Assembly: GCA_016207405.1 (NCBI GenBank)
Contig: JACQPQ010000021.1
Coordinates: 4,936-68,935 of the forward strand
Length of the DNA: 64,000 nucleotides
Direction of reading: 5' to 3'
DNA from: Gammaproteobacteria bacterium
GTDB lineage: Bacteria; Pseudomonadota; Gammaproteobacteria; JACQPQ01
Below the pieces are notes generated by a model. It saw only the letters and a list, made by a program, of their open reading frames with translations, did no database searches and was not told where the DNA came from. This document shows positions 56,679 through 57,643 of the stretch, in pieces. Made by a program: the position numbers and the translations under genes. Position 1 is the stretch's first letter. Every line of letters begins with the position of its first letter.

Positions 56679-56708
56679 AAGCTAATCTGGCGTGCCCGGA
56701 GGGATTAC
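56679..56708. repeat. 30-bp partial duplicate of the tRNA-Arg 3' end plus 9 downstream bp (att-like direct repeat, distal copy)
   Basis: aagctaatctggcgtgcccggagggatt at 56679..56708 matches aagctaatctggcgcgcccggagggatt at 57558..57587 in 29 of 30 positions. The proximal copy spans the 3' 21 nt of tRNA-Arg. Confidence 0.75.
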
Positions 56709-56792
56709 TCGCCGCTATCCTGGCCCTCTATGCCAGGCACGGTTGAACACAAATTCGGCACAGTGTGTTTTTATCGGTGTTATAATGTAAAT

Positions 56793-56954
56793 ATGAAACA
56801 CAATTGCTTGATGAACACCAATCCCTATTTAAAAGATCCAAAACAACGAATAAAATTGATTCGCCGTTCTGTTGAAAGTTCATCTGAAATCGAAGGAATT
56901 TATATTAAACTCGGGGAAAAAAGTTCTACTCGAAGAAAAAGAGCTATAGGATAG
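56793..56954 (+). CDS. Candidate FicA/YhfG-like antitoxin (53 aa) carrying an SxxxEG inhibitory motif
   Basis: The product is MKHNCLMNTNPYLKDPKQRIKLIRRSVESSSEIEGIYIKLGEKSSTRRKRAIG. RRSVESSSEIEGIYI resembles YhfG R.NFQQSRRLEGIEI. It is the 3' part of track ORF 56661..56954, convergent to the Fic gene and overlapping it by 11 bp. Confidence 0.4.
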   Translation: MKHNCLMNTNPYLKDPKQRIKLIRRSVESSSEIEGIYIKLGEKSSTRRKRAIG

Positions 56955-57471
56955 ACTTTTGAATAATTTTCTTAAAAAGAATTGTCATAGGTTGATAGTT
57001 TCTATCTAAACCAGCCTGAACAGCTCGAAAGTAAGCTTTTTTCTCTGCTCCTTTCACCATCCTATAATCAAGAGAAGGTAACCCCGCTTGCAAACACATT
57101 AAATCAGATAGTACGCGAGCTACTCTGCCATTACCTTCACGAAAAGGATGTATCAAAACCAATTCAGTATGAACAACTGCCAGCGCATGAGTAAGTTCTT
57201 CGTCTTCTAAACGGCTGCCTGGAGTAAAACGAGAAAGGATTTTCTTTTCAAACTCTGCCATTAAACGTGGTATTTCTCGTGCAGCGGCAAAATGAAAATC
57301 ATCCTTACTTAAGTTGGTATTACGATATTGTCCTGCCCACGAATAAATTTTCTTTAGCCAAGTCTTGTGAATAAAACAAATATCTTTTGCAGCAAATCGG
57401 TGGTTTTTATCGTAAGTTTTAGTGAATATCTTAAAAGCACTCTCGAGAGCTTCCGTTTCACGTCTATCCAT
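56944..57471 (-). CDS. Fic-family protein (class I-like; FicT/VbhT-type toxin candidate)
   Basis: It has the canonical HPFREGNGRVARVL (HPFx[DE]GNGR) motif and a length of 175 aa. It has no internal [ST]xxxE[GN] inhibitory motif. It lies inside the tRNA-flanked islet. Confidence 0.75.
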   Translation of the reverse strand: MDRRETEALESAFKIFTKTYDKNHRFAAKDICFIHKTWLKKIYSWAGQYRNTNLSKDDFHFAAAREIPRLMAEFEKKILSRFTPGSRLEDEELTHALAVVHTELVLIHPFREGNGRVARVLSDLMCLQAGLPSLDYRMVKGAEKKAYFRAVQAGLDRNYQPMTILFKKIIQKSIL

Positions 57472-57566
57472 TTTGTGTGGATCTTTGATGCCAAGTAGAT
57501 TTTTTAGAACTTCTTCATCGGAGCCAGGTTCAAACTGCGCTTCTTCAAATTCACTTTAAGCTAATC

Positions 57567-57643
57567 TGGCGCGCCCGGAGGGATTCGAACCCCCGACCAC
57601 CAAGTTCGTAGCCTGGTACTCTATCCTACTGAGCTACGGGCGC
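57567..57643 (-). tRNA. tRNA-Arg (anticodon ACG)
   Basis: The reverse-strand sequence is GCGCCCGTAGCTCAGTAGGATAGAGTACCAGGCTACGAACTTGGTGGTCGGGGGTTCGAATCCCTCCGGGCGCGCCA. It has a 7-bp acceptor stem, anticodon loop CTACGAA and encoded CCA. Confidence 0.9.

Follow-up and report, generated by a model that had tools for sequence, protein, structure and literature searches.

The 64,000-nucleotide stretch of the gammaproteobacterial contig JACQPQ010000021.1 analysed here (hereafter, the window) carries, between the gene for tRNA-Arg(ACG) and erpA, a small islet encoding a Fic-domain protein. Our analysis indicates that this islet is probably a decayed remnant of an integrative element, similar to a cis-mobilizable element (CIME), that has kept a truncated gene of a FicY-type toxin next to an intact gene of an AntY-type antitoxin and most likely represents a disarmed addiction module. 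The islet comprises 851 bp between the two copies of a direct repeat and contains only two open reading frames (ORFs), fic and a small ORF converging on it (coordinates of all features are collected in Table 1).

The direct repeat is 28 bp long. Its two copies are identical at 27 of the 28 positions, and the bases immediately past them differ (ac vs cg). It consists of the last 19 nt of tRNA-Arg, namely the last three nucleotides of the T-loop, the T-stem, the acceptor stem and CCA, and of the 9 nt downstream of the gene. The distal copy has T at position 56693 where the proximal one has C at 57572, a difference that would break the acceptor pair 2-71. A repeat of the tRNA-Arg 3' end at this place had been noticed in an earlier, purely sequence-based description of the locus (the original prediction), and its presence stands; however, its details need correction, as the 30-mer is identical at 27 rather than 29 of 30 positions and the ARAGORN boundaries assign 19 and not 21 nt to the tRNA. 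At up to three mismatches, the 28-mer occurs at these two sites only in the 64-kb window. None of 100 dinucleotide-shuffled sequences contained two matches to it, and none would be expected by chance. A nearly perfect duplicate of a tRNA 3' end that shuffling does not reproduce looks like the footprint of site-specific integration into a tRNA gene, just as had been proposed. Both junctions are also present in independent data. The Logan contig L002 (SRR12113390) corresponds base for base to window positions 53487-56793, across the left junction, and the Logan contig L001 (SRR12113385), corresponding to 56676-57592, is identical over the whole islet and both cores. Since two independent assemblies from the Sequence Read Archive reproduce the junctions, an assembly artefact is unlikely. 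It is worth mentioning that L001 starts 3 nt before the distal core and stops 7 nt after the proximal one. Each repeat appears to be a break point of the assembly graph, which could stem from branching related to the tRNA or from a mixture of occupied and empty alleles.

The GC content of the islet (36-41%) is lower than that of its flanks (43-48%). No integrase was found within the 851 bp by an ORF scan, and tblastn with the Fic-linked enterobacterial integrase described below gave no match in the 64-kb window, in agreement with the absence of an integrase noted originally. There is no tandem integrative element in the window either. A second island was considered at the tRNA-Leu gene (39249-39339) and rejected, because the 436-aa ORF that follows it (the two together lie within 39249-40681) encodes trigger factor, with ClpX next, and not an integrase.

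The evidence that the fic gene is broken comes from several directions. Starting from the first available ATG, the ORF encodes 175 aa and a complete helical FIC core with HPFREGNGRVAR. The search of the islet with hidden Markov models, advised together with the original prediction, duly assigned this ORF to the Pfam family Fic (Table 1). Among the 3,539 Fic homologs found at E-values up to 1e-3, the best 120 are mostly 210-220 aa long; the top ones, of about 214 aa, cover 99% of the 175-aa query and are longer by some 40 aa, all of the surplus being N-terminal. Upstream of the ATG the reading frame of the window gene stays open for another 28 codons, none of which is ATG, GTG or TTG, and is then closed by a TAA that begins on the terminal base of the repeat. 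When 28 family members are aligned, the frame-extended translation of the window gene begins at family residue 10 and retains the invariant residues of the N-terminal arm, so that only the first nine residues (consensus MKKxGRYDx) are absent. The PADLOC profile PDLC04839 tells the same story from the side of the protein. Residues 1-171 of the ATG-initiated product align to profile positions 34-203 of 205 (E = 5e-65), whereas a full-length homolog matches from position 2 onwards (E = 1e-79); positions 1-33 are thus missing from the window product. At the nucleotide level the nearest relative of the module, the Logan contig L251, is 79% identical over window positions 56747-57555. Homology to L251 and to another related locus, L083, ends at the same position, 57555, while the fic gene of L251 runs nine codons further (MDKKDRYDT). 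It follows that fic has been cut exactly at the tRNA-proximal att core. No Shine-Dalgarno sequence precedes the internal ATG of the 175-aa ORF. Judging from these comparisons, the fic gene of the window is devoid of its first nine codons, its start and its promoter, a truncation that the original prediction had missed. In the 28 orphaned codons, the ratio of non-synonymous to synonymous substitution rates (dN/dS) relative to L083 is 0.23, and the truncation is probably recent in comparison with the divergence from L083 and L251.

The relative itself has some features of its own. In L251 (SRR22388166, positions 3631-4668) the antitoxin is 81% identical to that of the window and the DNA 79% identical. 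An excisionase-like ORF of the HTH_17 family abuts the antitoxin promoter and continues into the antitoxin ORF without a stop codon. The fic gene of L251 is frameshifted into two ORFs of 105 and 106 aa, and AbiEi_4 and HTH_3 genes are found nearby.

The small ORF on the opposite strand, which the original prediction had named as a small convergent ORF, is not incidental and turned out to be a conserved partner of fic. In the window its 3' end overlaps the 3' end of fic by 11 nt, and the 53-aa product contains S30-S-E-I-E34-G35, fitting the inhibitory motif [S/T]xxxE[G/N]. We used the Fic sequence to collect related loci (Logan and NCBI contigs, 80 metagenome loci and viral contigs) and searched the region behind fic for a partner. 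Of 97 related loci that could be assessed, 89 have a convergent small ORF with [ST]xxxE[GT], in tail-to-tail orientation to fic. They comprise 67 out of 75 metagenome loci in which the sequence extends far enough past fic and all 22 of the other loci (Fic 37-69% identical). No such ORF was found at loci where Fic is only 27-34% identical. A stricter extraction procedure retained the partner in 79 of 102 loci, and in 76 of these 79 its 3' overlap with fic measures 4-125 nt. Once 31 of the homologs are aligned, the only invariant positions are M1, S30 and E34; the motif ends in E-G in about half of the family and in E-T-G in about half. Based on its conserved position and motif, the 53-aa convergent ORF is, as far as sequence can tell, the cognate inhibitor of this Fic subfamily.

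This partner has largely escaped annotation. Four small ORFs tested against Pfam and NCBIfam at E-values up to 10 had no relevant match; ATP-synt_J (E = 0.19) and, for the ORF of L084, Sigma70_r4_2 (E = 0.13) were dismissed as sub-threshold chance matches. No PADLOC model matched the small ORF, a profile of the antitoxin family had no matches in PDB at E-values up to 10, and a word-indexed homolog search with the small ORF returned nothing. RefSeq labels the partner 'hypothetical protein'. The family was recovered solely by an exhaustive HMMER search, which yielded 56 representative clusters, mostly of 46-70 aa, and by our own six-frame scans. The AntY-like module was also seen in other protein contexts (P0244, P0258 and P0263): a 102-aa protein has two copies in tandem, a 638-aa helicase-like protein has one copy C-terminally, and a 153-aa protein has it N-terminally, ahead of a C-terminal part resembling a small endonuclease domain. 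These composite proteins may be real fusions or gene-calling read-throughs.

The antitoxin gene of the window has a perfect extended -10 promoter sequence just upstream of its start codon (Table 1), and this arrangement is common in the family. In the upstream regions of 74 distinct family members (L083-L248 and the window), a TATAAT-like box 4-10 nt before the start is present in 44, compared with a mean of 7 and a maximum of 14 in shuffled upstream sequences. Out of these 44 boxes, 39 end 5-7 nt before the start and 34 have the TGn extension. The pattern predicts that the antitoxin mRNA is leaderless or nearly so and that it converges on, and overlaps, the toxin transcript. This leaderless-type pattern is characteristic of most non-enterobacterial members; in the enterobacterial ones, a TAGAAT box is found about 25 nt ahead of the antitoxin start, together with a ribosome-binding site resembling GAGG. 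The predicted arrangement would agree with the 'independent promoters' described for ficY and antY.

As for the Fic protein, the core motif HxFx(D/E)GN(G/K)RxxR is present as HPFREGNGRVAR in the window and in all 120 closest homologs. The window protein has no internal inhibitory helix with [S/T]xxxE[G/N], and such a helix is not conserved in the family: a match anywhere in the sequence occurs in only 11 of the 120 homologs, in varying forms (S.L.E[GN], SGN.EG). Class I Fic toxin-antitoxin (TA) systems and their motif are defined in PMC5033356, after Engel et al. 2012. Given the core motif, the lack of a conserved internal motif and a separate small protein that bears the motif, the window pair belongs to class I by sequence definition, in line with the original assignment. 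The fold was examined on the full-length homolog P0002 (68% identical) rather than on the truncated window protein. Its AlphaFold model (predicted local distance difference test score, pLDDT, 93) is closest, according to Foldseek, to BepC, VbhT (3SHG_A, template modelling scores 0.76/0.81), EcFicT and Fic-1. A search of PDB sequences with the Fic profile likewise ranks Fic-1 (8WT0), Bep proteins, VbhT and EcFicT highest. The fold is therefore like that of FicT and VbhT, the toxin type that had been suggested; nevertheless, the closest system as a whole is FicY/AntY, with its convergent antitoxin, and not the VbhTA/FicTA operon.

In Yersinia pseudotuberculosis YPIII, the class I Fic protein FicY (YPK_0608) is inhibited by AntY, a protein with the motif S22TAIET27. 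The antY ORF lies downstream of ficY, converges on it and has a promoter of its own (Lu et al. 2020, PMC7479194). FicY AMPylates ParE at Tyr106, blocks relaxation by Topo IV and causes filamentation, and AntY inhibits it fully at a 1:3 molar ratio (PMC7479194). Our comparison was made by proxy, through the Fic protein of the Citrobacter freundii plasmid L249 and not the FicY sequence itself. The L249 protein has its catalytic histidine at position 141 and a 52-aa partner with S22-T-A-I-E-T27, numbering that equals FicY H141A and AntY of PMC7479194, and the window Fic is 43% identical to it (E = 2e-51). By way of this proxy, the window pair can be classified as a divergent FicY/AntY-type module. 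Both share a class I Fic and a downstream convergent small inhibitor with a promoter of its own (here a predicted one) and the S-x-x-x-E motif, and the antitoxins of the window and of the proxy align through the S..E helix. They also differ in several respects. In place of a full-length toxin gene, the window has one without the first nine codons, start and promoter. Its antitoxin ends the motif in E-G (SSEIEG) instead of E-T, has an N-terminal TNPYLKDP segment that is absent from enterobacterial AntY-like proteins and appears to be leaderless, whereas the enterobacterial genes have the spacer of about 25 nt and the GAGG-like sequence.

In VbhTA, EcFicTA and Fic-1/AntF the antitoxin gene directly precedes fic and forms one operon with it (PMC5033356, PMC13327609), and toxicity and its neutralisation have been demonstrated for FicY/AntY, VbhTA and Fic-1/AntF (PMC7479194, PMC5033356, PMC13327609). 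The window pair shares with VbhT/VbhA, EcFicT/EcFicA (YhfG) and Fic-1/AntF, which are known to target GyrB and ParE, the HPFx[D/E]GNGRxxR motif, an inhibitory helix supplied in trans and the fold. In contrast to their operon organisation, its antitoxin gene is downstream, on the opposite strand and overlapping by 11 nt, and the antitoxin has no detectable similarity to the VbhA or FicA (YhfG) families. The window Fic also matches the candidate defence system PDC-S04 of PADLOC, via the Fic models only. At about 90% of the loci of this subfamily Fic is accompanied by a second, unannotated gene, and the unit here is probably a two-gene system; the Fic of the window is a truncated copy.

How might such a locus have arisen? 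We propose that a site-specific integrative element entered the 3' end of tRNA-Arg(ACG), an insertion that would have duplicated the tRNA 3' end as attL and attR. A later deletion, reaching from the tRNA-proximal core to codon 10 of fic, would then have taken away the integrase and all other DNA in between, leaving the 851-bp islet unable to move alone. Starting from an arrangement such as int-fic-antY (see below), deletion of the upstream integrase together with the 5' end of fic would give the structure of the window. If the deletion extended from the core through the integrase into fic, the edge of the repeat is the deletion endpoint, and its coincidence with the break in fic needs no special explanation. 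In the intact system, Fic would AMPylate the B subunit of a type II topoisomerase (ParE Tyr106 in the case of FicY), and the antitoxin of about 50 aa, whose mRNA would start at a separate extended -10 promoter and be leaderless or nearly so, would block the enzyme by inserting the glutamate of the S-x-x-x-E-G helix in the ATP site. The fic gene of the window could yield at most a 175-aa product from the internal ATG, without a ribosome-binding site and without the N-terminal arm. According to this scenario, the TA pair outlasted the rest of the element and the toxin was inactivated afterwards. That the toxin has been functionally inactivated seems to us likely, yet it is the least certain point of the scheme.

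By definition, a CIME keeps att sites and has lost recombination and transfer genes (Guédon et al. 2017, PMC5704250). The window islet resembles CIMEs in keeping attL and attR while the integration and transfer genes are gone. It differs from them in its size, 0.85 kb being far below that of described CIMEs, in having one end eroded up to the core and in bearing no sign that another element has accreted with it or mobilised it. The original prediction had offered two explanations, a decayed remnant of an integrative element and an unusually minimal cargo or cassette mobilised in trans. The truncation of fic at the att junction and the missing integrase favour the former, and the position of the break exactly at this junction argues against the latter.

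Related loci show what an intact element may look like. In enterobacteria, fic is preceded at a distance of 4 nt by the gene for a 438-aa tyrosine integrase and followed by a convergent 52-aa ORF. Matches to this int-fic-antY unit (L249, L250 and L089-L101) were obtained in 42 Escherichia coli chromosomes, 24 of which align over at least 80% of its length, and in 12 IMG/VR proviruses with integrases 92-98% identical. In E. coli NCTC9064 the unit is followed by AlpA-like, YfjI-family and inovirus-Gp2-family genes, the island being located beside nfeF; no tRNA gene is annotated at the island junction. As in the window, the pair is arranged tail-to-tail, here at the integrase end of an integrative element. 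Unlike the window islet, these islands have kept the tyrosine integrase and the AlpA-like and YfjI-family genes, and their Fic is only 43% identical. Apart from a weak match in L128, tblastn with the enterobacterial integrase found nothing at the other loci.

An independent parallel is provided by L183, a 716-kb metagenome contig (Ga0208041_1000005), in which smpB, the tmRNA gene and, after them, a 1.64-kb islet occupy positions 3080-5101. The islet holds an intact fic gene (3974-4651) and a convergent AntY-like ORF, with no integrase. At its far end there is a copy of the tmRNA 3' end, identical at 26 of 27 positions (3408-3434 vs 5075-5101) and made up of the last 25 nt of tmRNA and 2 nt downstream. 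The 540 bp between tmRNA and fic were considered as a possible integrase remnant; their six-frame translation looked unlike an integrase, and the idea was abandoned. In L244, tRNA-Ala is followed by fic, and a duplicate of the tRNA 3' end is absent from the 460 bp available downstream. All in all, only 2 of 102 related loci lie beside a tRNA or tmRNA gene, which means that the pair is not specifically tRNA-targeted and makes use of many platforms. Plasmids are among them, with 887 plasmid records, large plasmids included, matching the pair.

Direct repeats flank fic at many related loci, which suggested an integron gene cassette. In L228 (2850-6850), as well as in L190, L195, L197, L206 and L210, a repeat of about 25-60 nt (GTGTCATCCATAAAAAAGTTGGCC…) is found in intergenic regions every 1 kb or so. 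Being spread among unrelated housekeeping genes, it looks like a repetitive extragenic palindromic (REP) element or a miniature inverted-repeat transposable element (MITE) and not like a cassette boundary. The integron idea was rejected as a general explanation: the repeats of L228 are interspersed and intergenic, the neighbours are ABC-transporter ORFs and not IntI, and there is nothing of the kind in the window. In the flanks of fic in L174, L175 and L218, the repeats translate to an HsdM N-terminal motif (YGDYVEQLTYLLFLKMADE) and an HsdS-like C-terminal end; judged by eye, this suggests that the pair often resides inside duplicated hsd loci.

Several observations weigh against the proposed history. 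Neither an empty site nor an intact parent element was found for this lineage, so that integration is deduced from its footprint alone. The nearest relatives have no integrase beside fic: in L083 only 200 bp of non-coding DNA lie upstream of fic, with no integrase adjoining, and the 5.2-kb contig L251 holds none. We examined 60 ErpA loci (ErpA about 61-75% identical) for an empty site, and none had a tRNA gene beside erpA. In a set of 5.8 billion proteins, the top non-self ErpA reaches 73% identity, which indicates that the lineage has no sampled close relative. Further points, which speak for residual Fic activity, come from the fic gene and its homologs. The 203 fic codons contain neither a frameshift nor a stop, with dN/dS of 0.15 relative to L083. 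In the AlphaFold model of the homolog, the part corresponding to the 175-aa product keeps all seven helices, the flap and the catalytic loop. Moreover, seven Fic proteins of 177-179 aa (P0023, P0066, P0071, P0095, P0101, P0103 and P0107) begin at the very methionine with which the window ORF starts.

These last points are what could be expected if the remnant still contained a live TA pair. The 175-aa Fic would then be made from the internal ATG on read-through from the tRNA operon and restrained by the AntY-like protein, the pair serving as an addiction or as a defence/stress module. We consider this unlikely, although less so than the other alternatives. It would explain why the antitoxin has been kept with its perfect extended -10 promoter, and it fits the sense orientation of fic between the tRNA operon and erpA, the latter being without a detectable promoter of its own. 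The first helix of the homolog model starts at residue 35 and the window methionine corresponds to residue 38. The shortened protein might even be an active AMPylase, possibly freed from an N-terminal auto-inhibitory 'lock', such as has been proposed for class I Fic proteins (PMC5033356). However, there is no Shine-Dalgarno sequence in front of the ATG, and the arm that would be lost includes the invariant residues E14, V25, L26 and N28 (alignment A3). In the model this arm (residues 6-34) packs on the core with pLDDT of at least 90, suggesting that it is needed in folding or function; in class I Fic proteins, the N-terminal arm includes a segment that binds the flap (PMC5033356). As to the low dN/dS, over 31% protein divergence it says little about the timing of a recent truncation. 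The seven entries of 177-179 aa could be explained by start choices of the gene caller or by further N-terminally shortened copies.

A more speculative extension of the remnant scenario, which we put forward as a doubtful one, is that FicY/AntY pairs are 'last survivors' that stabilise att-flanked mini-islets, the latter being substrates for helper integrases, and that an orphan antitoxin acts in anti-addiction. The tRNA-Arg islet and the tmRNA islet of L183 do have the same order, with the 5' end of fic toward the RNA gene and the antitoxin promoter toward the distal core. If the idea were true, a still-promoted orphan antitoxin would protect its host from FicY-type toxins on newly arriving elements.

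An even less probable reading takes the islet for a whole, minimal cassette between att sites that still relies on the integrase of another locus for its movement, in trans or in cis, in the manner of a CIME or a satellite. Both cores being kept at 27/28 would agree with this, as would the L183 islet, where the same cargo without an integrase is framed by a duplication of the tmRNA 3' end, and the ends of L001, which fall 3-7 nt outside both repeats, as expected if the assembly graph branches there. Nevertheless, fic is broken at the att junction, and for this reason an intact cassette mobilised in trans is not the best reading. Circularisation would not repair the gene. The hypothetical circle junction would read …TTCACTTT-core-ACTCGCC… or …CAAATTCACTTT-core-ACTCGCCGCTATCC…; on the minus strand fic would still run into the in-frame TAA formed by the core itself, and the 40 bp next to the distal core do not encode the missing M..RYD. 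codons. The room for arm binding is 0 bp at the tRNA-proximal end and 40 bp at the distal one. The rarity of related loci beside tRNA or tmRNA genes also speaks against a dedicated cassette, as does the window itself, in which there is no integrase of the Fic-linked type and the other tRNA gene considered is followed by trigger factor. Finally, a repeat that arose by chance, by ancestral duplication in place or as an assembly artefact, next to an old chromosomal fic pair, is highly improbable: there is no empty site for comparison, but 27/28 identity over exactly the part from the T-loop to CCA is a canonical att footprint found in 0 of 100 shuffles, two independent assemblies agree, homology to other fic modules ends precisely at the repeat, and the GC content of the islet is below that of the flanks.

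Returning to the decayed remnant, which we prefer, its surroundings offer some hints at how it might have been shaped. The genes for tRNA-Ser and tRNA-Arg probably share one transcription unit that reads into the islet and erpA. No sigma-70-like promoter was detected on the minus strand between the tRNA genes and erpA, and so erpA is probably transcribed from the tRNA-Ser/tRNA-Arg operon, now across the islet along the sense strand of the fic remnant. Between the ATG of erpA and the distal repeat there are 45 bp; were the empty site restored (…GTCAAGCCATGGG-AAGCTAATCTGGCG[C/T]GCCCGGAGGGATT-CGAACCC…), this ATG would be 54 bp behind the CCA end of tRNA-Arg. Selection for a short, terminator-free read-through may have favoured the large deletion. 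The segment of 40 bp between the distal core and the start of module homology could be a residue of the attP arm. Farther out, just upstream of anmK, the window contains a 641-aa ORF (53095-55020, plus strand) with two Cys-rich copies near its N-terminus (…DGxECTSSTQCSSGYCYPGP…YC…).

Table 1. Features of the islet, its flanks and the enterobacterial int-fic-antY units. Positions refer to the window unless a locus is named.
Feature	Position	Strand	Basis
anmK	55096..56226	+	Window ORF
erpA, chromosomal flank	56286..56633	-	Pfam Fe-S_biosyn, E 4e-21; NCBI names the identical protein ErpA
Distal att core, 28-bp copy of the tRNA-Arg 3' end	56679..56706		Repeat comparison
Segment of 40 bp from the distal core to the start of module homology	56707..56746		blastn match to L251 begins at 56747
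Predicted extended -10 promoter TGtTATAAT	56778..56786	+	Ends 6 nt before the antitoxin ATG
AntY-like antitoxin gene, 53 aa, MKHNCLMNTNPYLKDPKQRIKLIRRSVESSSEIEGIYIKLGEKSSTRRKRAIG	56793..56954	+	Six-frame scans, alignment, HMMER
fic ORF from the first available ATG, 175 aa	56944..57471	-	Pfam Fic PF02661, E 1.4e-18
28 in-frame codons, remains of the N-terminal arm, SEFEEAQFEPGSDEEVLKNLLGIKDPHK	57472..57555	-	Frame extension, alignment
In-frame TAA straddling the edge of the proximal repeat, truncation point	57556..57558	-	Read from the sequence
Proximal att core	57558..57585		Functional tRNA-Arg 3' end and 9 bp downstream
tRNA-Arg(ACG), intact, putative integration target	57567..57643	-	ARAGORN; Rfam tRNA, 65 bits
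tRNA-Ser(GCU), directly upstream of tRNA-Arg, same strand	57650..57744	-	ARAGORN, Rfam
int-fic-antY	L249:1153-3243 (C. freundii plasmid NZ_CP048383.1, p6_A)		Integrase gene 4 nt upstream of fic
int-fic-antY	L250:4001-6091 (E. coli NCTC9064)		Chromosome match

Both kinds of objects met here, the CIME or tRNA-island remnant and the FicY/AntY module, have been described before. The locus as such is an ordinary genomic fossil, in all likelihood an element eroded to a TA pair in which the toxin was then inactivated. Observations that concern the whole family appear to be more useful than the locus itself, and these are the nearly universal unannotated partner, its promoter, the linkage to an integrase in enterobacteria and the tmRNA islet. 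In a large environmental Fic subfamily, the convergent layout known from a single Yersinia pair, FicY/AntY, is the rule, and because the partner ORF has no Pfam or NCBIfam model it is usually missed. The predicted leaderless antitoxin mRNA, converging on the toxin transcript and overlapping it, represents a regulatory design that can be tested.

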